Assembly (NCBI GenBank): GCA_000934665.2
Contig: KZ538502.1
Coordinates: 45,847 to 65,846 of the forward strand
Direction of reading: 5' to 3'
DNA: 20,000 bases
Source: Catajapyx aquilonaris
Lineage: Eukaryota
A model generated the notes under the pieces. The model saw nothing but the letters and a program-made list of their open reading frames with translations, made no database searches and had not been told where the DNA came from. How positions within the stretch are numbered: the stretch's first letter is position 1; each line of letters starts with the position of its first letter. Shown here piece after piece: positions 1,251 to 20,000 of the stretch. Both the position numbers and the translations under genes were made by a program.

Positions 1251-1448
1251 GAATATAAACCCTCAAGAGAGTTTTGTATCATTTAGCAACTTTGTGTAAG
1301 TACAAATACAGGTAATGATGCTGGTCACATGACATTCTCATGGATTTGTGATATTTTCAATTTGTGATCCGTCATGTCAGCACTTTAAAAAAACCGTCAA
1401 ATTTGGGAGGTTTTTGGTTTTTAGAATTGAAGATAAAGGATTCTCAAC

Positions 1449-4400
1449 CTGTACTAGCAAATGAAAATGCAGCTTTGTCTGAAGTGTATTCAAGTGTAAT
1501 ACCTTTGCATGCACTTGCAGGTAAACAAAGCATCGGTTGTGTGGTTCAAGAAAACCAGTTGGCTTTTCAAGGATGAGCTCCACTGGCTTCGCTGGTGATT
1601 CTTCTTTCAATTTTATTCCCCAGGCATGTGATTCACGTCCAGAAGGTACAGTTGACAACTGATCTGTACACTTTATGAAGCACCTGCAGTCCCATTCATC
1701 ACAACCTATGTACTCAGCTGAACAGGTGTACATTTCATTCAGATCTCCATGTATCAGCACAAATCGAGCCTTCACATCAGAGAGATTAAGAAGCTCTAAT
1801 GCAAATTCTTGTTCGGCACCCATATGCATGTGACCAAGGTCCACCCTGCACACCAAGCATAATGAAGCATCATTACGTAATTGTCATGAGGCCCTTGACT
1901 TTTAGGTGATTTTAGATGGCCGGTGGCTTTTACAAATTGAAAATTTGAAGTTTTGATTCACTTCATATGGGGCTTCTGATCATTAATTCATCATTCAGGG
2001 GCCAATAAAGAAATATCTTCCTCTAACAAATCTCAACTTACTGCAAGATAATTGGTTTTCATACAAATTATTACAACTTATAATCAAGACACCGAGTGTG
2101 TTTTAAAAAACACACAAATGAACACTTAAAATTCTAGTGGTAAAAAAAAGGGGGCAAACCGATCAATCCCAAAGACGACCTGTGGTCCGGCGAGACGAGT
2201 CCTGATCTCGTAGTGCATCATAAGAGGCACGTTCGCAAAGTGTGGATCAGCTGTCTTCGGCACTTGTGGGGTGATGTTGCCCTGCAGGAAGTGCCTGACA
2301 GGCATCTCAACAGTGCCTCCCACTTCCACTTTGAACTGGACAACATCTGCAGGAGCAAGGACAACCTCCTTGGGAGTGATCTTGACCCAATAGGTAGAAT
2401 TTTGGGTGAGAAGGCTGTAGACAGGGCGAGAAGGCCCTCCCATTGGAAAAACACGAGTAAGTCCCACACGCTGGACATCTGTAGAGGGTTTTCTTAATAA
2501 AGAAGCTGTGGATGCTCGCAGCACACACTTCCGAGTGGGATCTGGTGGTTAAAAGTAGGCTGCAGTCATGAACTGTGCTTAATGAGAGGTCAGTCAAAGT
2601 TCATTCCTTCCATACCTCCTATACGTTTCTCACCTGGAATGAACGTGTCATCCTCAGTAAGTCCCATAAATGGCGAAGGATTCTGCTCATCCCAGACCAC
2701 CTTGAATGGCCTTGGAGATGAGTTTATCAGCATGAAGGATCGCATTCTGGATTGCCCCACAGGTAGGTTCTTGTGCAGATGAATTCCAGGAGGAAAAAAC
2801 TCTGCCTTCAGAGGGTTACACCTGGTCCATATCTCTATCTCAGAGTGCAGCACTATTTTCTGCATCACCTCTACCATCACCCCAGGGTTAGGCCTCCAGT
2901 CATCCCGTGCCAGAAATGTCCAACTCATATTCGGAGTTGGCAAAAACATCGATGATTTGTACTCCTCCAGGGTTGCTCTTGGCAGAATACCATGGTCATC
3001 ATCAATTTCCTCTGGTCTAGATAGTTCTGGGATGCCAATCAAGCACAGGCTGCAGCAGAATGATCAATTGTTTTTCTAACAGTTCAATTTTATCATCATC
3101 ATCGACACACAAAACGTGGCATGTGTCAAAATGTTATTCCAACAATATTGAAAGTTCATGTGGTTAGATTACATCTTTCTTTCTTTTTCAGATTATCTAG
3201 GCACTCGAGACAGTAACTGCACAGAGTATTAACTCACCTGATCACTCTGCACCACAGCTGGTCATCTGCACATGCATCTGGCCCTCCTACCAGAGAGATC
3301 TCGCAGGTTACATTCCTCTTGGGGCGTATTATGCCACGGGCAGGTGTAATCATGAGTCTCCCCTGTCTGTCATCTCCAAAGTTAGAGTGCTCTTGCATAT
3401 GCCGTGGAAGGCGCACAGTCCACTCATATTTCAATTCAACATTCCTGCAAGCACAAGTGTTGGGCATTTTATGAACTCAGATTCCAAAGTAGTACAGATA
3501 CGAGTGACCTAACGTCCCATAGTTCAGACTAGGTCTGAACCTTAGCAAAATGCTTGCCATACATTACTAAAATTACCCCCAAAATTATCGGATGCCTCCC
3601 TTTTGCGACTCAAAAATTGTAAAAATTTTCCTTAAGAATAGTGAGAAAATCTGCAGAAAAACAGCGATACTTGGTACTAAAAATGTTAATATCAGCTGAC
3701 CCATGGTTTGTAAGGTTGATATTTTTCATGACAATCTCATTGGGTATTAAATCCTGATCCACATGAATAACATGTGAAATTGATGGGTCAGTGTCACATC
3801 CCTGTGGAGGAGGTGCCCAGGGGCCATCCACAGTCAGCATGTCGGGTGAGTAGACAATACATTTTCCAGTGATGGTGATCTGGCGGGATATGCCGTTGTC
3901 ACATAGCAGCATCAGTCCAATGGTGTGGACTGCCTCTTGAATAGGCATGAAGCGTATCTCCAGGTTCCAGGATGATTGAGACTTGCTCGGAATTTCAAAG
4001 TATGTTCCCTTCAGATGGAAACAGTTGAGAAGAAAATCCTGTGGACATCTGTCTGTCTTCCCCACTTGCTCCATCCACTATCACAGAATTTTAAAAAATA
4101 AAATTCATTATACTGAACAACTAATATTCCAACAGAAACCCAATCATCAAGCAACTCAAGTTGGCACGATTTGTATATTAATCCTTGCCCTCAAAAACTC
4201 AACAGGCAGCCAAGGACAAAAAAAAAAAAAAAAAAAACACCATCAATTGCTACCAATTCTTCACCAAATTTGTGCCTGGTCTAGGTTAAAAGAGATTTTG
4301 AAAGGCTTTAGAGAAAACCTAACTCACGTTCCATCCGTGACAATACCAATCATGGTCTGAAATCAGCCAAAACTTTCCTGGCAGTCCACCAGTATTGCTC

Positions 4401-6824
4401 ACTGTGCAGATTTTCTCTTTGCGGCCACCCAGGAAGCACGACCCTAAATGTATCTCTGATGGCACTGCAAATAAAAGAGCAAAACTATTGAAAATAAACT
4501 AACAAGTACTTAGTCGACAAAAATTGCTACCTGAAATGGGCTCATCAATTATTATTATTTGAGCATACAGGCCAGCCTGAATGTCATGCAGACAAGCTTA
4601 CAACAATCCATGTTACAAGGCTACCAAAAGTACACTGGAACTCTGGTGACATTTTTACTTCAACAGGAATGTATATTCGCAACAAATGAATGACACGACA
4701 TACTCCATGCGAACATGATGGCCATGATAAAAAGTACTCAAAGAAACGTTTAGGCAAAGGTGTCTTCAGTGCTAAACAACCAATCAGGTGGATAATTATA
4801 CTCATCAAGGAACATATTTTGTAAGTTTTCTAGGTTTGCAATCAATTTACTTATATGTAATTAGGTGTCTGCAACATAAATGGTCACTCACAATCCAATT
4901 TTGCCTGGTCTGCTATCCCCTTGATTGGGACGTTAATAGTAAATCCAGCTTCTGCATCGATGTGGAAGATGCTTTCAAAGACTCTGGTGGTAGGTGGAGA
5001 GAAGCGGACCCTTAGCCAGAAGGACATTCCAGGGGCCAGAATGCTGCTCCTGGTCTTGGGGCAATTTGCCCTGCCCCCTTGTGGATGCTTGATATCCTCT
5101 TCCCAGAACACGTGGAACACACCTGAGGTTATCTCACACAGATTTGGTGGAAGGAGAATCAGCCTGTCATGTGTTAGGCCCACATTCACTATCTGAACTC
5201 GCACCTGCACCACAAAATAACAATTGACAAGTTTAATATGTTTGAGTCGATAAATTCCTCTTGGTCCTGCCAACTTTTAAATGTTTGGACCACACAATAA
5301 ATTTTACCCCATATTTTACCATCATGGATTTGTGAATTGTACATGTTGATGTTATTACATACCTCATAAACACTGCCTGCCTCATACTCTTTAAATATGA
5401 CCTTCGGTGGTCGAGCTTCATATGCTACTGGAAGTTTGTCTCGAGGAACTTTCAGTGACTCAGATAACCAAGCCCCCTTTTTAATGATCTTCTTTTTATC
5501 TAGCTCCCAAAAGCGACGGTATTCTAATCTGGAAGGGGGAAATGTAAAAATTCTGTGCAACAGTTTTCCTGCTTAAAATTTATGTACTCAGTAATTTCTT
5601 GTATTTTTGGTACTCGTGGCTTAATTATTGGAGGCAATCTCACTACTGGTCTCTTCACCAGATTCTCCGTCAAGACTTTCACTACCAATAGAAACATACA
5701 TCAGTCACTTTACACACAATTTACAAGGTAAGCATGACATACCACTTTTGATCTGCTTCGACAGGATAGGTATGTCAAACACATCCTTTGGATTTATAAG
5801 GTACACGGCAAAGTCGTCAGGTGGCTCATATTGCGTCAGTGGGCTCTTCATAGTCAGACGCTCCAAAGAACTATGCATAGTGCCATGCTTCTCCTCAGAG
5901 AGCAGATTAACCATTAGATTCGCTTTGGATTGCATCAATTTATCCTCTACATTTAGTAAGGTCTCCCCCTTCACTCCATAGTCATACTCCAGCTGAAAGA
6001 ATCAAAAATATTCATTACCTTCCTTCTTTTCCCCCCCCATAGAAGCCCTTTTACATCCTACAAGCTTTATATTAGCTGTGTGTGGTACAGTACCATCACA
6101 CACATTTCCTTATGAGTGAGGAGAGAAGCGACTTCAAAAAGACTATTTGAGGGGTGTGGTGGAAAAACATAACTGACATTTTTGACCTAAACACCTAGCA
6201 ACTATGTATAAGACATGACAAACAGTTTGGTATACTCCAAGTTCACGTACCATGCCACACGGACTAGATCAAAATCAGCATTCCCCATGATTTGTTAAGA
6301 AAATGCAACCTTCAATTCGCTCTCCTGCAAAATTACACCTTTGTCAGTTCTCATGTTTTTCCACCACACCCCTCATTTGACGACATTGCCTGATGCAAGA
6401 CTTGGAAGTCCTAGCCAGATAAAATCCTGTGTGTTATCTTCAAATGGTGATCCAGTGGTTATGCTCAGGATAATACCATCTAAAAGCACATCATTTGCAT
6501 AATAAGAAGATTCTGAAGCTGCTCACAGGCAATTTACTAGTAACACTTCACCTTTTCAGCTTCTGCAGCATAGGTAGTGAGGCCTTCAGAGGCGGCAGTC
6601 ACTATCAAGCTCTTTGCCCTTCGCTCAGGAGCTTCTTGTGGTGGGTCCAGCAGAGGCCTGAAGGCTTTCAGGACGCATGCTGACATCTCCTGATCAAATA
6701 CAGCCGGATGTAATGGCAGCAAGGGTATTCCCTCCCTTCTATCCATTTTTTTTCTTGCAGTTGTCTTGTAAGGGAGGTGATCACACCCAAGGGACTTGTG
6801 GGTTGTTGACACATCTCCATGCAT
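1449..6824 (-). CDS. DLEC1: DLEC1/CFAP81-like cilia- and flagella-associated protein (tandem ASH/Ig-like domains); 11 coding exons, probably 3'-partial
   Basis: Phase-consistent GT-AG exon chain: 6552-6746 (or ATG 6824), 5743-5992, 5588-5681, 5363-5528, 4892-5204, 4328-4464, 3701-4077, 3238-3444, 2616-3049, 2160-2541, 1449-1845, about 984 aa from ATG 6746. Segments resemble vertebrate DLEC1 as recalled: DQEMSACVLKAFRPLL, YEARPPKVIFKEYEAGSVYE, LAPGMSFWLRVRFSP, LPSEIHLGSCFLGG...NTGGLPGKF, LLCDNG, NVELKYEW, GPQVVFGIDRVDLG. The last donor (1449) and the start codon are uncertain. Confidence 0.85.
4328..4464 (-). CDS. DLEC1: DLEC1-like exon not shown in the ORF track (LPSEIHLGSCFLGGRKEKICTVSNTGGLPGKFWLISDHDWYCHGWN)
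   Basis: Acceptor ttttatttgcag and donor gtgagt; the 137-nt length joins phase 1 to phase 0 as required. Resembles the DLEC1 'LDCGYCLIGG...NVG..GRF' segment. Confidence 0.85.
6149..6374. mobile_element. 226-bp MITE-like element with perfect 22-bp TIRs and a 4-bp ATTT target-site duplication
   Basis: GAGGGGTGTGGTGGAAAAACAT (6149-6170) and its exact reverse complement (6353-6374). Sub-terminal AACTGACA/TGTCAGTT pair. ATTT at 6145-6148 and 6375-6378. Lies in a DLEC1 intron. Confidence 0.8.
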
Positions 6825-9176: not shown

Positions 9177-11037
9177 TCAGAGGGACTTGCGAGTCCGGGT
9201 GGGCAGATAATCCACCTTCACAAGTATCTGCGACTTTGCTTGTCTTGGAAACTCTCGTCTGTGGATGGTGGATATCTCGCTTGGCGGAGAGGAAGGTGAT
9301 TCATTACTGGTCCGTTCCTCATGGTCGTCTTTTCCCTCTGACCTGCCCACACTTGCACTTTCAACTGGCTCTGCAATTGAGATGGGTGGCTTCTTCCTCT
9401 GCCTGGGCTTGTCTCTAGGCCACCCAGTCATGTTACGTTTCCTCTTCTTTGCACGTCTGAAAGGAGTCACTGTTGAGTCGGCCTCTGACGTAGTGCTCGT
9501 CACATCAGATCCTGCTCCGTTGTCACAAGTACCACTAACTGCGCCCTCCACCTTTTCCAGACAAGCACATGAACTAAATTCGCTCACCATGCTCACTACG
9601 TCTGGCTCACAAAATGTCACTGGATTAGGTGTTGGTCTCTTGAACTTCCTAGGTCGACCTCTAGTGGGAGTGGTCTTGACACTAGGTCCCAATCCAACCT
9701 CTAATCCAGCTGCACGAATATCCTCCTCATTAGCAACACCACCCACACCTTTAAGGTATGCCTCAAGGTCACCATCAGCTGACTCGAGAGCTGCCAGCCT
9801 CTGCCTTGAAATGCCCATCAGCAGTGCCAAAGTGGAGGCATGGCAACGAGGTGATTTGCGTGGCAATGATGAACTGGACTTTGACTTCCGTCGTCCTGGA
9901 CCAACTTTAGGATAGATCAAGTCCTGGGGAAGCTCATATGGGAGGAGGAAGTGCGGCTTCTCCTCCTTTGCATCAGGAACTGAGTTTGCAACATCACCAT
10001 TGTCTTGCCGCTGGTATGTCCTGAACCAGGGCTCTCCAACTGGGACACTCTCAAAACTAAACTTGAGTCGGGACATCCACTCTGGAAGATCTTGGTCTGG
10101 GTTGTCATTGGATTCCCGGCTCTCCTCATCTGTTAATGAAGCACGGCGATGGATCCTATGGGTTGAACGAAGCTTGGACGACAGGATCTCAAACTTGTAG
10201 TACTCATGGTTGTCTGATATAAGTCGCACTTCACAACTGCGTCTCCTCTTTTGCTTTGCCTCCTCCGAGTCGTCATCATCAGCCTCTGCCTCTGACTGAC
10301 CCCCCTTCTCTGAGGGACTTGCATCTTTGCCTTTTAATTCTTCATCACCCTCGACAAGTTCTGATTCCGCTTCAAGTCCAGCCTCTTTCGCCCCAAATCC
10401 CATCTCTTCTTTAAGGCCCCCTCCTTTCCCTTCCCTACGCTTCTCTTTCTCTGAAAGCACTGCTTCTTTTTCACCAGGCTCCTCTTCACTGTCCTCCTCG
10501 TCACTGGAATCTTGCTCACCAAACAAGAACACTTCTGCCTCACTCAAGCACATCTGCGAAGCATTCCTCCTCACCTTAACCCGCCTCCTCTTCAAGCTAT
10601 CACCATTCACATGCTGCCTGCTTGAACGCAACTTTGAGGGAAGCACTTCCACTTTGTAGTACTGCTCATTGTCTCTCAGAAATTTCTCGTCACCGGCCAC
10701 CTTTCGACGCTTCTGCTGGCAATCACGCTTTAGGAACTCGATGGATGCGAGCCCATTGCTCACTGCACTTAAGGCACTCTTGCTGGATGCCAGGTTGTTG
10801 TTGTTCGTCGATACCATTCCGCTGACTGTCCGTCTTCGTTGGCCATTGAATGTTCCTTCCACAAGCACTGGTCGTTTTTCCTTGGCAGGGTAACTGTTTG
10901 TCCATGTGGCCGAAGGGGCAATGCGTTGATCCCCATAGGTAGTTCCGTTGCGGAGTGTCAGTCCCTTCTTGATTTGAGGTTCTGAGTAAACTCTGGCACT
11001 TCGGAGGCAACGTCGTACTGGCTCCTCCTCACTATTT
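9177..11037 (-). CDS. chif: chiffon terminal exon (619 aa): Chiffon-type C-terminal region with AT-hook
   Basis: Acceptor ttttcttctcgtccag (phase 2). Blocks FSFESVPVGEPWFRTYQRQD, LLPYE, PRKSPRCHASTLALL, AT-hook TRGRPRK (~9645-9665) and KRNMTGWP resemble insect Chiffon C-termini as recalled. Confidence 0.88.
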
Positions 11038-14000
11038 CTGGACGAGAAGAAAATCTTTGTAACCAACTCAACGAGATGATTTATAAATCAGAATGAATTA
11101 GAACTTGTATGCTATTATTTATTAAGTAAAACTAATAGTGGCATTCTCTGTCAATCATCATTACTAATACATCACAATTACCAAAATGTGAATATTAGTG
11201 TCAGGAAATCACACAAAAGCATGGCAAGGCATGTAACAGGAATTTATGTCCTAGGTGAATNNNNNNNNNNNNNNNNNCCCCCCCCCCCCCAATCCAAATT
11301 GGATATATTTTGAGTTAATCTCACATGCCTCTGCATGTACAGTATTTGTGCAGCTTATGCCCCAAACCCACTTGTCTTTCCCCTGAGTAAAGAGCAACAA
11401 TTAATCATCAGCCAGAAATGGTTAAGATATTTTGAGAAGCAACTTCTCTGAAATTGGGGACATGTTCTCCTAGTTTCACATACACTGCAGTACCCTTTTC
11501 ACTGCTTATGTAATGACAGCAGTTTTAAAAGAGATTAAGACACTTAAAACAGCCCCCAACTTTTGTGTAAAAAGTAAGATCTACATTCGATAATTCTGGA
11601 AATGTGAACCAAAGCCAAATTCTAAGTCAAATAAATTTTTATGAAGTAGAACTTCACACTGTCAATAATTATGTGAAACAGGCCTACATGGCTGAACATC
11701 AATAAAGCACAATGGTAAACATTCAGAGCAGCTCATCAGTTTCATCATGCTGAGCATGCATTGTCCCAGTTAACTTCTACATTAGTATGGGTATTCAACC
11801 TTCCTCGCTTCAACAGAATTTACCCTGAAATAATCTTCCAAAGTTGTTCCTAACATCACCGACTCAAGGGAAGTGTGGAATATTGATAAGCATGACAACT
11901 ATCTACGGCTGGTTTCATTAGTTACAACAATCACTTTACCAATCATTGACCAATCCAACCATACGGAACTGATATAATGATTTGGTGTTTTTTCTGATCA
12001 TGCGAGTCAGTTGCTATCACAGAAGGTACCCCCCACAACTTTAACTTTACAAGTCCCAAAAAAGAAATAACAAAAATGCATTGGAAACTGATATATTTTT
12101 GCCTGACTACCATTGGTGGCAGATAAGACCTTAACAATGATATTTTCCATGTACCAATACTGACACTTCATCTATGGTAACATGAATTATGCCTTGAAAG
12201 TCAAAGTAATTACAAAAAAACAGCAATAAAGGGATAAAGAAGTGAAAAGCCAAAGCTGCATGCAAGCAGGAAAATAAAATTGCAACACACGCCCACGAAA
12301 CAAGTTCAACATCTCATTCAAATTCCACAATTGCATGTTAAAGAAGATGGGTAGGTTATTAACAATCTTCTGTACAGAGATTTCAAATCAGGATGGAAAG
12401 TTGTGTTGCCATTTTACCCTCAGATACGCTAACTACAATACCATAAGTATAACCTTTAAACAAAACTTACATCTATCATTAGGGATAAGCAAAATAAAAA
12501 TGTGAATTGATAAAACAGGTAATTTACTGCATGATAAACTGAGGGAGACGATTTCCAGTCAACTCCAGTGGATGCATTCGTCTTCCAGATCTCAACTCCC
12601 AACGCATGTCCTCCTTTCTCTCACTCCCTCTCTTTCTCTCCCTCTCGCCCTGCCTTTTGACTTTGCTTTTGTTTACAAGTGAGGGTGACCGTGTCTCACT
12701 GGAACCCCGGAACTGTAAACACAGGCATGTTGTTGGGTTATTAAAGGGGGGGAAGGTGAGGTGCCAAAAGGTGCAAATAGAAACAACAATAATTTTGAGT
12801 CAAGGAAATACTGGTCATTCTAGTTAACGTCACACTAAATACCTCCAATGTACTCTCAATTTATCTCTCATTACTCCTAATAATCCAATCATTAAATTAG
12901 TTCAACGCAAGAAATGACTAATGCAACACATACTTTCATCCTACACTAAAGAAGACATGCTCATCAAGAGCAATATTTTATTTTGGTGCATCAGACTTCC
13001 AATGCGACAAACTTGTGCATTTCCCATGCCCCCATTTATAGAAGAACGTGCAGAATAAGGAAACAACACACCAAGGTATATTAAATTAAAGCTTCCAGCT
13101 AAATTAAAACAACAAAGCCACAAAACTCTTCTCCTGATTCATCCTATCAGGCTACCTTCGAAACAAAACTCACCTGGAAATGGATCCTTTGAACACTTGC
13201 AGCCCCACATCCTTTCCATTCCCTTCCTTAATGAGACGATCCAGCTCCTCGTAGTTTCTTTCGTCACTCACAAAGCGAAGGTGTAGCTCACACTTGAGAT
13301 GCTCTGCAAGGCTACGGTAAGTCACTCCACAAATTTCGCAATAGCTCCGCTTTGCTGCCTGCACGTTGGCCACCGACACCTGCCGTTGCTGCCGTTGCAG
13401 TTGCTCCTGGTGTTGGTGGCGTCCTTGCTGCCTTGGCGACTTTTTGATGTTGGTAATTCTCTTCTTCCGCTCGGTTACTTGGTTGGCGTCCTCAAACGGT
13501 GAGCTAAGTGACCCAGTCCTCACACGCAGGACAGGCCAACGAACAAGCTCTCTGTAAATTGGTATCTCCTCACAGTCCTCAACCTGTACAAAAAAATATT
13601 AACTTAATGATTATTGTGAATGAGACTAATGAAACCAGATATAATTATCCAAGGAAATGTGTCTTGGCCCTCCGTACCAACATCAGCAAAACGTATGCAC
13701 CTTGTAATCAATATTGCCCTTGTGGTGCACATCATATACTTGCACATCATATACTTGGCTGAACACATCTCATGTTAGATACCCTAGCTATTAAAGACTA
13801 TCATTATTATTGCTAACTCAGCTGCTAATGAGCTTTTCCTCAGTAGGCATCTACTTTTTCTCCCAGGTAGGCACAGCATTTCCCCCCAATAAACACTACA
13901 CCCTTCCTTGGCATGAAATTTACTGAGGGTGTTTCACCAACTCACCAAATTCGATTTAAATTTTCTTCCTCCCTATGGAACATTACACTCACCTTAATGT

Positions 14001-17000
14001 ATGGCACGCTCAGACGTCGGACACTCACAACAGGCAAACGGCGGTTGGCGACAGTATCTGATTTTTGTGGTGATGGCAGTGCCGCCTTCTTCAACCCCGC
14101 AATGTACTCAACAGCCTTTTTAACAGACCATATCTCGGTGCCCCAGCGCTGGGCATTGGCTAGGACATCAGAGGTTCCACGCCTCTTGCTCCGTGCCTGG
14201 TCTAGCATAGCATCCACCCGGCTCCTCAGCTGGCGGACCCCTGCCCCACCATTGGCTCCTGACAAGATCCCTCTGGTTGCTGGGCGGGTAGGTGTAGCAG
14301 GAGAGGCATTGCCTCTCCCAACTGAAGTGCCGCTAAGGCGGCGCTGGTCAGTCACAATGATGTCTATGTCCTTGCTCAGAAATGCTTCAATCACCTGCAA
14401 TCATGACAACTAGCTCAGTCAAACTATAACACTGGTTATTAAGACCTACAGGCTGCAAATATTCCATTTCAATGAAGAAACCCAACTTAAATTCCCACCA
14501 TTTTTAAACATAAAAATACCTTATCATCAGTATTAATATAAAGCACAGGTTGTTGGTATGTCTGTCACGTCACACCTATTTAACCCACTTCCCGAGTCCC
14601 GAGAGCGCTGAAACTTGGCACGCCCATGTCTTACGTTTCGCTGATACCAGGAAAATTTGGCAACAAAGCGCTTTTATATTTTTAAAAAGGCGTGGGGGGC
14701 AATAATTGTCATTTTTGAGGGGAGTTATTTTTTAAAGTTATGAACAAATTTCCGTACTTTCGCGCACGTTCGTCGCCATACTGCATTGCTGCCCTGCTGT
14801 GTACACTGGTAGAGGAAGTTTCTATGTGGAACTCCACAAATCAATATCCTCTCAACAATATCTCAGGTTTCAAGATCCCATGGAGATGACACCATTCATA
14901 TAGGCGGCCTGCCCTGACTTTGACCTTACGTCATCATTTTGTGTACCAACTCCTAGTCAAAGGAAATCTGCCAGAACGCACCCCTGGAACCTCACACTGT
15001 TCAAGTTTCCATGGAGATTCCCTCTTGCAACAATGGGAGTAAATTGAGTAAACACTGACAACAACAGAACCACGAATACCATTGAAAACCGCTGTTTACG
15101 TCCGCATTTACTCCCATTGTTGCAAGAGGGAATCTCCATGGAAACTTGAACAGTGTGAGGTTCCAGGGGTGCGTTCTGGCAGATTTCCTTTGACTAGGAG
15201 TTGGTACACAAAATGATGACGTAGGGTCAAAGTCAGGGCAGGACGCCTATATCACGATTTCATGTCGATGTCTCGCGCCTCTCTCTTTTACACTTCGTAT
15301 CACCGTAAATTCAATGCATCAATAATATATAAAGCCCCTCTCCGTGGATATAGGGGGCTATAGGAGGATAGAAAAGATCTTGCACTTCCCAACGTCGTAC
15401 AGTGCTGGGCATATTAGCCGTCGCTGAATTTTTTTTTTTCGGCGGCGGCGGCGCTGCCGTTACCTGGCAACCCTGTCCAGAGGGCCAATTCAAACATCAG
15501 CCCATGGAGAGCGCTTCCATTGTTGCCACTGTTTACAAATCGAGTGAGTGACCCCAAAATGACTTATTGCTTCTAACATCATTATTTTCCCTGTTTTCTC
15601 CTGCATATCCCTGCAGATACTGTGTAAGCAGGCAGAAGAGACCCGTCGCTGGGTTGTCCGCGTCACTCACTCGATTTGTAAACAGTGGCAACAATGGAAG
15701 CGCTCTCCATGGGCTGATGTTTGAATTGGCCCGCTGGACAGGGTTGCCAGGTAACGCCGCCGCCGAAAAAAAACATTCAGCGACGGCTAATATGTCCAGC
15801 ACTGTACAGGGCTGGGAGTTGGCTCGTTTAAATATAAGAGCTGAACTCACATTAGAAACTCAAAAAGTTGTACTTACAGCCCCAAGTGACTCCAAATCTC
15901 TCGTCAGTGACCTGACATCAGCCTGGCCCTTCACGTCAAGGTAGTAATGCTTTCCTTTCAAAGGCTTCTTCTCAGGAGACTTTTTCACTGCAATGTTAAC
16001 AAGAACATTTTATTAATCAATTGTTTTCTTCATGTTTTCAGTTACAATGTCATGACAACAACATATTTCATTCAAACAAGGATGGGTCATAAGGGTCTTA
16101 ATTACTTGTAAAGTGGGCAACACTGGAAAGAGAACTTCTATCCTAATGCCAATGGGCAGACATTGCAGCTCAATCCTTCATGCACATTGACATTTGCTAC
16201 CAATGTCATCTAAATCCTTGTTACAACACCCCTTGCTATCTCTGGCTTTCACCTCTCAGGCTGAGCTGCAGTAATTATAAATACATTTTACGTTTCATAT
16301 AGGTTCCACACTACAAGGTCTTACGTGGGTGTACTTCCATGAATTAAGAACATGTTGTAGAATTATTCAAGGTGAGTTGTGCCTAACAGTCAATAAAATT
16401 GGTATACAAGATTTTAGAACTGCTTTCCAACCCATATGCATCTATGCCTGACTAGGTAGCTTGTCAACTACAGCCTTTTACCTACCAACCGGCGAGGCCT
16501 CTACTCTTTTTCACACAAGTAATAGTACCTTAAAATATCAAGCAGCTTTGTATGGTAATCACCAGATTACTTCAAGGTCAACTTTTGCAATAAGTCAAAA
16601 TGAACAGTGCCAGAAAACTGTCACCCAATTCCATTATGTGGTAAATTGTTGAAACCCAACCCAACACCCTTATAATAAGCCTACAAAAACTGCTAAGGGC
16701 AAGGCTGTTTCACGAATTCTATGGCAAGTGGGACAGGATATGCATGTTATGAAATTCACAAGTTGCGCAGTGATTGAGTGCCAGTTAAACGCTGAACCTG
16801 ATGGATTTATCGCAGATGGTAAGCAGGCGGCAATGGGGTTGCTATAGGCCTGCAATTCCACCTGCTCATCTCCCACTTCGCTCACCGAACATGTGAAGCA
16901 GCCTCCGTCCGCAAGCGTACTCCGACAATGAACCTCACCTCTATCTCCTTCCTTGAGTCGTACCCACTTCCCATTCACCTTCTGCTTCTTGGAGGGCGAA

Positions 17001-17005
17001 ACCAT
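9177..17005 (-). CDS. chif: Chiffon / DBF4 (Cdc7 activator) with long C-terminal extension
   Basis: Exons: 16939-17005 (MVSPSKKQK..., in-frame TGA upstream), 15878-15987 (PLKGKHYYLDV...LESLGA, motif N), 13993-14394 (VIEAFLSKDIDIIVT...LANAQRWGTEIW...PYIK), 13174-13583 (VEDCEEIPIYRELVRWP, motif M; YCEICGVTYRSLAEHLKCELH, motif C zinc finger), optional 12528-12698/12712, and terminal 9177-11037. All phases join, giving 949 aa without the optional exon. Confidence 0.92.
11261..11277. other. Assembly gap (17 N) followed by poly-C
   Basis: Run of N characters in a chiffon intron. Confidence 0.99.
12528..12712 (-). CDS. chif: Putative optional chiffon exon with two acceptors (12712 and 12698)
   Basis: Purine-rich open frame FRGSSETRSPSLVNKSKVKRQGERERKRGSERKEDMRWELRSGRRMHPLELTGNRLPQFIM. 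Acceptors tgtgtttacag and ggttccag, donor CA|gtaaat. 12528-12698 is 171 nt, phase 2-2. Confidence 0.55.
13174..13583 (-). CDS. chif: chiffon/DBF4 exon: motif M and DBF4-type zinc finger
   Basis: Acceptor ttttttgtacag, donor gtgagt. C-x2-C-x9-H-x5-H finger in SYCEICGVTYRSLAEHLKCELHLRFV..ERNYEELDRLI. Confidence 0.93.
13993..14394 (-). CDS. chif: chiffon/DBF4 exon: second part of the BRCT-like motif N
   Basis: Acceptor attgcag, donor AAG|gtgagt. VIEAFLSKDIDIIVTD, SRVDAML, DVLANAQRWG. Confidence 0.9.
14528..14760 (+). repeat. Possible 5' part of a non-autonomous Helitron-like interspersed repeat
   Basis: Layout tattaatatataaa...gtatgtctgtc...gctgaaacttggcacg resembles arthropod Helitron-derived repeats from memory. 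No 3' hairpin or CTRR end was identified. Confidence 0.3.
14898..15252. mobile_element. Foldback/MITE-like element: 147-bp inverted repeats around a 61-bp spacer
   Basis: Arms 14898-15044 and 15106-15252, with 2 mismatches by eye. Ends are ATATAGGCG...CGCCTATAT (TA/TATA flanks). Confidence 0.88.
15400..15804. mobile_element. MITE with ~145-150-bp TIRs, CAGTG...CACTG ends and TA target-site duplication (Tc1/mariner-like signature)
   Basis: TA|CAGTGCTGG at 15398-15408 and CCAGCACTG|TA at 15796-15806. Arms 15400-15552 and 15662-15804 differ mainly in a (GGC)n/poly-T tract. Confidence 0.88.
15878..15987 (-). CDS. chif: chiffon/DBF4 exon: start of motif N (not in the ORF track)
   Basis: cattgcag|TG AAA AAG...GGG GCT|gtaagt translates to VKKSPEKKPLKGKHYYLDVKGQADVRSLTRDLESLGA. 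Confidence 0.9.
16939..17005 (-). CDS. chif: Probable first coding exon of chiffon (MVSPSKKQKVNGKWVRLKEGDR)
   Basis: ATG in AGGATGG context with an in-frame stop upstream. The phase-1 donor G|gtgagg matches the next exon. SPSKKQKV looks like a CDK site overlapping an NLS. Confidence 0.65.
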
Positions 17006-17397
17006 CCTGGCCGCGGAGGAGCCGCTGCTGCAAATTCAACCAGGCACATTTGCACCAGCGACACCCTCAACAACGCCCCTGCTCAACAACAGTCCAGCCT
17101 CCAATCTGCACAACCACCTTCAACACCCTGTAACAACAACAACAACAAAATATGATGCTGCACTCAGTCTAGCCAACCCAACCCTTAAAAAGTTGGCTCC
17201 CTCAGTAATGCCAACACTAGTTTGCACAACCCACATAAGACTGTTGCTGGGCTCGGCTGGCAACAACAAAGGAGCAGTCTCTGGATTCACACACACAGTC
17301 CCCCCCCTTCCAAGGCTTGTTGTTTACCCCACCGGAAAAACTCCCCAAAACCGCCCACCAGCCGAGGGGGAAGTTGCGAGAAAAACGGTCACAACCC

Positions 17398-17419: not shown

Positions 17420-17929
17420 ACTAGTTGGGAGGTGGAAGGGTGGGAAAAGAGGCGGCGTTGCCACATCGACCCCAACTCCCAACCGGGGCCATGCGACGTT
17501 GCCCAATCTACACGCTCGATTTAACATGTTGGGACAGGTTATTGCGCCTCCTCTTTTTTTAATAAATATTCAAACGTAATGCACGCGATCGGATAATCCC
17601 AATTCGAACGTGACGTCACCGTATTCTTGCACATGCCAGAATATTATTGCGGTTACTAATACTTGACGTCACAATGCCCGTTCCAAAACAGCAAGTGGGT
17701 CATTAACATTCTGTCTTTTTAAACCAGCAACAACGTCCGTTAGCAGCCCAGCAAGGAGATCAAAGGTCGCAGCCCCTCCCCAGTCTCTGCGCTGGCCCCC
17801 GCCCTGTGAGAAGGCTATTTTGAAATTCCTTGATAGTGGACAGAGCATGGAACGTGGCAACAATGCGTTTCGTCGAACTTGCCCTTTTTTTCTCTCTCTC
17901 TCTCTCCCTCGTCCCTCCCCACTCCGGAC

Positions 17930-18415
17930 CGCCTCCCACTAAAACCAGCCACGGTGGATATGGGGAAAAATGGCAGGCTCGCAACTTCCCGCATCATCGG
18001 GGCTTGGCTCGGCAGCCATTTTCGAACACCACACCACACTCACACTTGATCCCCTGGGGCAGTCCGCCGCCCATGGTCCTCCTGTGGAACAACACACGAC
18101 GGACGCTGCCAACAGCACGCAACAGCAAGCAGTGCGACCAACTCCCTCCCGCTTCACCTCCCACTGCTGCGCGGCACCCCCTGCCTGCTGCTCGTCTCTC
18201 CCGCCCCGATATATCTCCCCTCCCACCGCTCGGTTCCCTGGACACCCGAAGCGAGTCGCTCCCTCAGCTCCACCGACAGCCGCATTCGAACCGGCATCAA
18301 ATGGAAGACTGGCTGGTTCACAAAGAGCCCGCTTGGGGACTCTGCAGTCGGCGCGGCAAACCAATTGGCGATCCTGCTTCCGGTGGAAGTGGAGGAATTT
18401 AAACGATTGGCAATC
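17930..18415 (-). promoter_or_regulatory. GC/CpG-rich putative chiffon promoter and first (5' UTR) exon
   Basis: CpG-rich block. E2F-type TTTGCCGC (minus, 18353-18360), palindromic CCAATTGG (18361-18368), ETS-like CCGGAAG (~18377-18383), second CCAAT at ~18406-18410, candidate donor GTGAGT at 18038-18043. Confidence 0.5.
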
Positions 18416-18488: not shown

Positions 18489-18802
18489 TTAAGCGGCTGG
18501 TGCGATGGCGTTTGGAGGGATGCCGCCTGCTTGTATGACGACGTGGAAGAACTCGTGGTCCTGCTGGTGGAATCCCAGCTTCTCTGGGGTGTCTTCGGGA
18601 GAGACGGGGGCGTCGTTGTACATTAGGAGGACGTAGGGGAGATCGATTCCCTGGAATTTACAACAGATGGGTTCAATGCACTAATTGGGAAAATGGGGGG
18701 AAATGTACGCACCGTCTGAAGGCAATACAACAGGAGGATCCAGCCGAACTTCGTGTCCTTCGCCATGTAGGCGTGTAGATGGTTGCTCTCGTCCAGAAAC
18801 AT
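18489..18802 (-). CDS. Divergent SUMO-like ubiquitin-fold protein with di-glycine motif; 5' exon not identified
   Basis: Exons 18713-18802 and 18489-18650 flank a 62-nt gtgcgt...ttccag intron and give MFLDESNHLHAYMAKDTKFGWILLLYCLQT|GIDLPYVLLMYNDAPVSPEDTPEKLGFHQQDHEFFHVVIQAGG-IPPNAIAPAA*. SUMO-like spacing of T, YC..G, DTP..LG and QxGG. Strong GC3 codon bias. Confidence 0.78.
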
Positions 18803-19783
18803 CTGACCGAAATGAGAATTCAATAAATTATATCTGTATTATCAGGTTCAAATTATTAAAAACCCGAGCACGGGGTTTAAAGCAGACAAACAAAAATAAC
18901 GAATAATAAACAAATAAGGTTCAGATAATTATTAGAAGGTGCCATTTAATTTTATGCCAGAAACACACATACACACTCTAAAGAGTCTAAACCACGGTCA
19001 TATAAGGTCTAAACGTTATTTTTGTGCACTATTTATTTATACGGCATGTAGCGATGCGCTTGACACCAGTGTCGGTGTAGGCTACTGTACAGTAGGCTAC
19101 TTCAGTCGTGGGGGAAAAAAATCCTGTACTTTACGTCATTTCTTCATGTAGCTATACAGTAGTGTACAGCACAGTACTGTAAAGGAACATACAGCATGAA
19201 GTCGCTGATTCCGTTTTAATATGTTTTGCAAGTCTGCCGCCTTCTTAGAACGTGACGAATAAGGCTTCTTAGTAGCCTACTTGTACTAATTGCAGTCATT
19301 TTTTTTAACTGGAATTGATTTGTAAATATGTCTATAGCGAAATCGAATCTATCGATTGTGTTGCCATATATCCCCTTTTAAAAAGTACGCAAGTTGGGTT
19401 AAAGCATTATTGCGTCGCTTTTGGCCTGAAAGTGATATGAGCTGCTAGAAGGGCTGATTTACATATCCCGCGCCATTTAATGATTTCCATGGGAAAAACT
19501 GCTCCGCTACAATGCATGTGTTTACTGCAGCTAGAATTTCTGCATGCGCAGCAACCGCGACGGCGAGGATCAGTATAGTGTCTATCAGTATAGTATTGCC
19601 TACAGTGCATAAAAATAATAATACTATAGTGTGGCTTGGATTTCAGCACAAAAAATATCTATCGTTGTACAATGTTTGTTGTTAGATTTGTGCATGCGTA
19701 GGCCTGTAGGTCGAGATGTATGACCTGAAATGTGCAACCATCAGAGTCACATACAGTAGCCTACAATAATATAATTATGATAA

Positions 19784-19850
19784 AATAATAATAATAATAA
19801 TAATATTAATAATAATAATAATAATGATAATAATAATAATAATAATGATG

Positions 19851-19906
<56 letters not shown>
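19784..19906. repeat. (AAT)n microsatellite, imperfect, about 120 bp
   Basis: Long aataataat tract with a few gat/att interruptions. Confidence 0.97.
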
Positions 19907-20000
19907 CTAATACATATTTCTAGACGTATGTCTGTCTCTCCTGTTATTCGCTATGCAAATCCGTACGGAGGCCCCGACATATACCCCAGGGGTTTCACTA

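Follow-up and report, generated by a model that had tools for sequence, protein, structure and literature searches.

The minus strand of the 20,000-nt stretch of Catajapyx aquilonaris DNA analysed here (the window) carries two short exons whose joined frame was proposed, in an initial annotation, to encode a hidden and highly divergent SUMO-like modifier with a QAGG motif and a pro-peptide. Few eukaryotic proteins are as conserved as SUMO. For insects, PMC4866545 reports one or two well-conserved SUMO genes, SUMO1 and SUMO3. The question raised by this locus is whether the exon pair encodes a real SUMO-like domain and to what kind of protein such a domain would belong. Exon A occupies positions 18713..18802 of the minus strand and comprises 30 codons, with ATG as the first and YCLQT at the end, that cover strand β2 and helix α1 of the SUMO-like domain (K-D-T ... 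YCLQT). It is followed by a GT-AG intron of 62 nt in phase 0 (18651..18712, minus strand, GTGCGT...TTCCAG) and by exon B, whose coding part (18492..18650, minus strand, 53 codons) starts with GIDLPY and contributes β3 to β5 with EDTPEKLG, IQAGG and the tail. By direct translation, exon B extends over 18489..18650 of the same strand when its TAA stop is included. Splicing of exons A and B results in an 83-codon frame that displays the K-D-T, YCLQT|G, EDTPEKLG and IQAGG motifs, the second of them spanning the junction, and that ends with QAGG, a 10-residue tail and the stop. As 62 leaves a remainder of 2 when divided by three, the exons lie in different frames and belong to different ORFs of the ORF list. 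Direct reading and translation returned the coordinates, frame, length and motifs of the pair exactly as annotated initially. Vertebrate SUMO2 presumably has a phase-0 intron at the corresponding YCxxx|G site, as stated in the initial annotation; a literature search on SUMO intron positions turned up nothing relevant. All three minus-strand frames, together with several plus-strand frames, are open in the exon B region according to the ORF list (a stretch of 51–56% GC), and the open frame over exon B is thus weak as evidence.

A relationship to SUMO-like domains is detected with exon B alone. A HMMER search of 1,835,955,588 representative proteins returned two matches at E ≤ 0.001, P0003 (6.2e-6) and P0004 (6.2e-5), both of which are multi-repeat Rad60-SLD (PF11976) proteins with Pfam scores of 64.7 and 206.9 bits, respectively. 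No canonical SUMO and no arthropod protein was found at this threshold in the exhaustive search. P0003 (555 aa, JGI) and P0004 (2899 aa, Logan) share with the spliced frame the [E/D]DTPE-x-LG-[F/Y/W] turn and the helix x-F-x-x-hh-x-x-[W/Y]-C. In contrast to the spliced frame, they are tandem arrays, from which at least two and 16 repeats, respectively, were recovered for a profile, and their repeats are not followed by GG. Both proteins are unnamed and derive from one contig each; P0003 has five matched SLD stretches, P0004 has 16 or more repeats, and P0003 also displays a Cys-rich Siva-like stretch just under the Pfam cutoff (25.3 versus 26.2 bits). The best PDB match of exon B is the SUMO3 precursor (2io1_B), which is a weak one (E 0.27, 15.2 bits), followed by a thioredoxin-like protein (E 0.95) and then SUMO2 (E 1.6), and no NIP45, Rad60 or Esc2 chain is present at E ≤ 10 in this search. 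The alignment with 2io1_B places RFRFDG on LLMYND, DTP on DTP, TGG on AGG and tail on tail. When exons A and B were scanned separately against Pfam, no family was matched at E ≤ 10, so neither exon reaches the PF11976 gathering score. The Atlas language model ranks Rad60-SLD/ubiquitin clusters second and third for exon B (0.89 and 0.88), which is taken as a lead only. A profile, hereafter the SLD profile, was derived from 18 of the P0003 and P0004 repeats. Among the 966 six-frame pieces of the window, the exon B ORF is the sole match to this profile, at 18.8 bits, the next piece scoring 4.4.

As the proteins of the SLD profile were picked for matching exon B, the score of exon B on this profile is circular, and it is the increment due to exon A that constitutes the independent evidence. 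Exon A alone scores 4.2 bits and exon B alone 16.9, against 29.5 for the spliced peptide, with exon A thus adding 12.6 bits in register. When exon A was shuffled 500 times and each version joined to exon B, the scores averaged 16.9 bits (sd 1.3, maximum 23.8), none of the 500 reaching 29.5, and the same number of whole-peptide shuffles gave at most 2.9 bits. For a natural control, every GT of the window, on either strand, was treated as a donor and the open codons preceding it were fused to exon B, which amounts to 1306 pieces with a mean of 16.6 bits (sd 1.1). The donor at 18712 scores 29.5 bits and is surpassed by two of the other 1305 pieces, those of the GTs at 18542 and 18539 (31.8 and 31.3 bits), which lie inside exon B and duplicate it. 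The best non-self alternative to exon A reaches 24.4 bits. Similarly, the phmmer score against P0004 is 71.2 bits for the spliced peptide and 39.2 bits for exon B alone, and the alignments of the spliced peptide to P0004 cross the junction, extending from residue ~11 to 63; taken repeat by repeat, P0003 and P0004 score merely 0.1–15.7 bits against the spliced peptide. Comparison of the spliced peptide with the SLD profile by hhalign yields a probability of 95.9% (E 5.3e-9, 56 columns); neither the reversed peptide nor any of 20 shuffles exceeds 6.4%. Exon A by itself has no Pfam or PDB match at E ≤ 10 and no usable Atlas match. The exhaustive search, the SLD profile and hhalign therefore bear out the claim that the spliced frame is homologous to PF11976-type ubiquitin-fold domains. 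The initial description of the sequence as highly divergent is equally apt, as neither exon matches a Pfam family at E ≤ 10 and exon B matches no canonical SUMO at E ≤ 0.001. All readings of this kind taken together, the exon pair is likely to represent real SUMO-like coding exons.

Relatives of the spliced frame were also sought by other routes. A word-indexed search gave no candidate among homologues of 34–111 aa and eight candidates of 112–2000 aa, none of them at E ≤ 10, and ten pattern matches in viral contigs were not confirmed. The metagenome scan gave a single locus, L001, with 50% identity over 34 residues. This locus (4551–5132, plus strand) was rejected as a chance match, since it lies inside a bacterial-type ORF of 193 codons and the match is confined to PVSPEDTPEKL, a short motif that recurs there by chance outside the ubiquitin fold. 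We take the 193-aa product to be a putative formyltransferase.

The base composition of the spliced frame follows a coding-type periodicity, with GC1/2/3 of 0.62/0.32/0.75. A GC3 excess as high as that of the frame (0.28) occurs in none of 2200 non-coding 252-nt windows and in none of 1099 windows from the adjacent GC-rich stretch (maximum 0.22 in each set), and the GC content rises from ~35% upstream of the ATG to 56% in the coding sequence, the intron lying at ~0.44 by hand count. Such periodicity is strand-symmetric, and most of exon B is also open in the in-register antisense frame; thus the periodicity supports coding without fixing the strand by itself, and it is the homology that fixes the strand. 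Codon usage differs from that of both neighbouring genes, whose GC3 is 0.51 and 0.45 against 0.75 here. With the neighbours as the training set, the codon log-likelihood is 0.5 for the proposed frame, 19.1 for another frame and 12–25 on average for the training chunks, values that are uninformative because the GC3 of the neighbours differs.

The C-terminus of the frame displays the organization of a SUMO precursor. The Gly-Gly codons, GGC GGC, lie at 18522..18527 of the minus strand, at the site of the SUMO di-glycine, and fall on TGG in the SUMO3 precursor alignment. The ten codons that follow (IPPNAIAPAA) and the TAA stop occupy 18489..18521 of the same strand and represent a candidate pro-peptide, as judged from the translation and from the same alignment. 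As no GT is present between GG and the stop, the SUMO-like domain is C-terminal. The frame thus retains a Q-x-G-G motif and a candidate removable tail (IQAGG, 10 residues and the stop, aligning with the SUMO3 precursor at its TGG and tail), and the QAGG and pro-peptide-like tail noted initially are upheld. In the 2io1_B alignment both tails follow the pattern GG-[I/V]-P-x-x-x-[I/L]-A. SUMO tails are usually not conserved, and the SUMO3-like tail alignment may have arisen by chance. The resemblance to SUMO2/3 (Smt3) precursors involves a hydrophobic β3, the D-T-P turn, L-G, β5, Q-x-G-G and a short tail, all in the same order, and is extended by the Y-C-x-x-x-G helix end that is present in the spliced frame. 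In contrast, the overall similarity of exon B to these precursors is very low (15.2 bits, E 0.27). The acidic loop MEDED of SUMO3 is replaced by FHQQDH in exon B and FRFDG by LMYND, with an N, followed by a D, opposite the acidic D of FRFDG. A further difference from SUMO2/3 precursors is that β1 and an N-terminal tail of the spliced frame are not within the window.

The missing strand is apparent from the SLD profile alignment, which spans positions 18–76 of the 89 and starts at β2, leaving β1 (positions 1–17) unmatched. The 83-aa frame thus does not contain the complete β-grasp succession β1-β2-α1-β3-β4-β5, and the initial model of a whole β-grasp domain of 83 aa fails because its alignment begins at position 18/89. 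The ATG at 18802 has a C at −3 and is directly preceded by a pyrimidine-rich, CAG-ending acceptor-like site. This putative acceptor, ttctcatttcggtcag (18803..18818, minus strand), was read from the sequence and abuts the ATG. The same bases may alternatively be read as a candidate transcription start, with TATAAT at 18827–18832 located ~28 nt before TCAG at 18803–18806, which would leave a 2-nt leader. A six-frame scan with the SLD profile revealed no β1-like piece in the remaining 1.2 kb upstream (18803–20000), and no second SLD is present within 1.2 kb upstream of exon A. Six ATG-to-GT phase-0 candidates for a start exon occur in 18803–20000, none of which resembles a β strand of the ubiquitin fold. 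The gene model consisting of the exon pair is probably, if less securely than the exons themselves, incomplete at its 5′ end.

In the reading that we prefer, exons A and B would be the 3′-terminal exons of a minus-strand gene situated immediately upstream of the arthropod chiffon/Dbf4 gene, and would encode β2 to β5 and α1 of a fast-evolved ubiquitin-fold domain of SUMO2/3-type descent. Strand β1 and any N-terminal tail would lie on one or more exons located past position 20000 and joined to the acceptor at 18803. The product is envisaged as a small free SUMO-class protein with a length of ~100 aa, which a Ulp/SENP-type protease would trim after GG and which would then be conjugated, or at least exposed, with the surfaces corresponding to the SIM groove and the acidic loop replaced. 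A free SUMO-class protein is preferred because the product ends as a SUMO precursor does, with Q-x-G-G and a 10-residue tail. The upstream exon, the expression, the cleavage and the conjugation of this product are predictions from the sequence of the locus, and the full statement, a free GG-terminated SUMO-class precursor with its first exon outside the window, is put forward tentatively, as a reading that falls somewhat short of probable. Of what was proposed initially, the SUMO-like nature of the frame stands, the stand-alone complete model of 83 aa does not, owing to the missing β1, and the conjugatable modifier stays putative. Several observations count against this reading. No orthologue or closer relative was obtained in the protein, metagenome and viral searches, exon A alone is without matches and the SUMO3 match in the PDB is weak (E 0.27). 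The codon usage is unlike that of the neighbours and the periodicity is strand-symmetric. In addition, no upstream exon was found in 18803–20000, the nearest poly(A) signal past the stop is ~930 nt away, and the SUMO acidic-loop positions, together with the acidic residue of FRFDG, are changed. That no more than one or two well-conserved SUMO genes are described for insects (PMC4866545) likewise weighs against it.

The C-terminal location of the domain is shared with RENi proteins (Rad60, Esc2, NIP45 and Drosophila CG4449), which the relevant passages of PMC549199 describe as carrying two C-terminal SUMO-like domains that lack the di-glycine. According to the section of PMC11065178 on human SLD2 (residues 345–419), this domain binds the backside of UBC9 via D394. 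Exons A and B could accordingly be the last two exons of a larger protein of RENi type (Rad60-Esc2-NIP45, Drosophila CG4449) or of a similar kind, in which the SLD would never be cleaved or conjugated and would instead act as a SUMO mimic that docks on the Ubc9 backside and steers SUMOylation, GG being an ancestral leftover. The missing β1 and the acceptor-like site before the ATG would be explained by such a protein, and the only significant relatives, P0003 and P0004, are themselves multi-repeat SLD proteins without GG. The likeness to the SLD2 of Rad60, Esc2, NIP45/NFATC2IP and CG4449 is that of a diverged C-terminal SUMO-like domain with an upstream continuation that is likely here as well, and heavily replaced SUMO surfaces are typical of RENi SLDs. 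It also agrees with the portions of PMC549199 that locate SLD2 at the extreme C-terminus and record RENi proteins in insects (CG4449), and with the backside binding of UBC9 by SLD2 given in the corresponding part of PMC11065178. In contrast, the spliced frame does not end at the domain. RENi proteins are reported to do so without a di-glycine (PMC549199), human SLD2 comprising residues 345–419 (PMC11065178), and the frame continues through QAGG into a 10-residue tail that aligns with the SUMO3 precursor. Furthermore, the PDB search that matched SUMO2/3 gave no RENi chain (NIP45, Rad60 or Esc2) at E ≤ 10, the exhaustive search gave no arthropod protein at E ≤ 0.001, and the 1.2 kb upstream hold no second SLD of the tandem pair that, with a disordered N-terminal half before it, characterizes the family. 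A RENi-type protein is thus possible and rather unlikely.

A chiffon/Dbf4 orthologue lies downstream of the SUMO-like exons on the same strand (9189–17005, minus strand). A search with it gave 126 homologues at E ≤ 0.001, among them crustacean proteins and several insect proteins with the name chiffon, the best at 2e-27 with 36–41% identity. These homologues map to 15967–15845, 14394–13945, 13598–13182 and 10799–9189, and the host is accordingly an arthropod that stands close to none of those annotated in this search. The zf-DBF domain is located at 13170–13598 of the minus strand (Pfam E 5.1e-15), a weak DBF4_BRCT match is below the Pfam cutoff, and the last exon covers 9177–11087 of the minus strand with 636 codons. 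The candidate first coding exon extends on the minus strand from the ATG at 17005 to 16979 (9 codons, GTGAAT donor, acceptor near 17028), and a run of 17 N at 11261–11277, an assembly gap, falls within the intron region of this gene. Promoter-like motifs are found on the minus strand between the SUMO-like stop and the chiffon start: CCAAT boxes at 18406–18410 and 18364–18368, beginning ~80 nt past the stop, CCGGAAG at 18377–18383, and TGACGTCA palindromes at 17611–17618 and 17664–17671. A chiffon 5′UTR exon could have its donor in the GTGAGT near 18040. The first minus-strand AATAAA/ATTAAA past the SUMO-like stop lies at 17558–17563, ~930 nt away. With promoter-like motifs from ~80 nt and a poly(A) signal at ~930 nt past the stop, the 3′ end of a SUMO-like transcript would overlap the apparent chiffon promoter, or the transcript could be shared; as judged from these motifs, the SUMO-like ORF and chiffon could overlap or share transcripts.

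This arrangement would also suit a relic, the last two exons of a partially copied SUMO-like gene, without the first, that are decaying and give no functional protein. Besides the absence of a canonical poly(A) signal for ~930 nt and the onset of the next gene's promoter-like motifs ~80 nt past the stop, such a copy would account for the absence of β1 and of any upstream exon from the window, for the poor ATG context (C at −3), for a codon usage that differs from that of the neighbours, and for the lack of relatives in the protein collections searched, apart from SLD matches of the P0003/P0004 type. However, no damage is seen in the frame, in either splice site, in GG or in the stop, and both exons still agree with the SLD profile at the positions of the hydrophobic core. 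A GC3 of 0.75 combined with the GC2 trough is far above the local background (0.35 GC upstream, ~0.44 in the intron), which is unexpected after a neutral time that matches the protein divergence. On this evidence a relic is unlikely. Flanking repeats that would mark a mobile element were looked for as well, and only an (AAT)n microsatellite and short chance pairs were found.

A complete protein made from the 83 codons alone, starting at the ATG at 18802 and lacking β1, is another way to read the locus, with transcription beginning at the TATAAT/TCAG-like start or with trans-splicing at the CAG. The frame does begin with ATG, the candidate TATAAT (18827–18832) lies ~28 nt before TCAG (18803–18806), and no upstream exon lies within 1.2 kb. 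Nevertheless, the profile alignment starts at β2. In the ubiquitin fold β1 is the central strand of the sheet, and without it an 83-aa product would probably not fold alone. The 2-nt leader and the C at −3 are also poor for initiation, and such a mini-protein is very unlikely. That the pattern arose by chance in non-coding, GC-rich DNA bordering the chiffon promoter region, where several frames are open on both strands, neither exon matches a Pfam family and the PDB match stays at E 0.27, is extremely improbable in view of the two PF11976 proteins matched, with nothing else, in the whole library (6.2e-6 and 6.2e-5), the independent in-register gain from exon A (0/500 shuffles, best non-self of 1306 pieces), the GT-AG located exactly where the two frames must join, and a GC3 periodicity above all 2200 control windows.

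The free GG-terminated precursor that we prefer admits a stronger version, in which it would be a third, previously unseen arthropod SUMO-class modifier, derived from SUMO2/3, that kept the fold skeleton, QxGG and the pro-peptide, had its SIM groove, acidic loop and E2 contacts rewritten, and acquired an altered or private enzyme specificity. We consider this version improbable at present. If it were true, a GG-bearing SUMO descendant with rewritten surfaces would provide a natural experiment on how a tag changes its enzymes and readers. If the domain instead were a RENi-type C-terminal domain or a relic, the locus would be an ordinary annotation gap. The practical outcome is an exon pair to be treated as real SUMO-like coding sequence, at the strength given above, and a first 83-aa model to be treated as 5′-incomplete.

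Features of other kinds are also present in the window. The AT-rich stretch that precedes the SUMO-like exons contains a long (AAT)n microsatellite at 19758–19933, near the window end. Downstream of chiffon, positions 1377–6001 of the minus strand display a run of ORFs of 100–170 codons, whose sole Pfam match is a sub-threshold one to Ig_Dlec1_1 (E 0.0081, 16.7 bits versus a cutoff of 29.7) and which are probably exons of another gene on the same strand. At the far end, two adjacent minus-strand ORFs at 4–995 contain a reverse-transcriptase fragment (RVT_1, E 7.5e-9) that is probably the remnant of a LINE-type retroelement.
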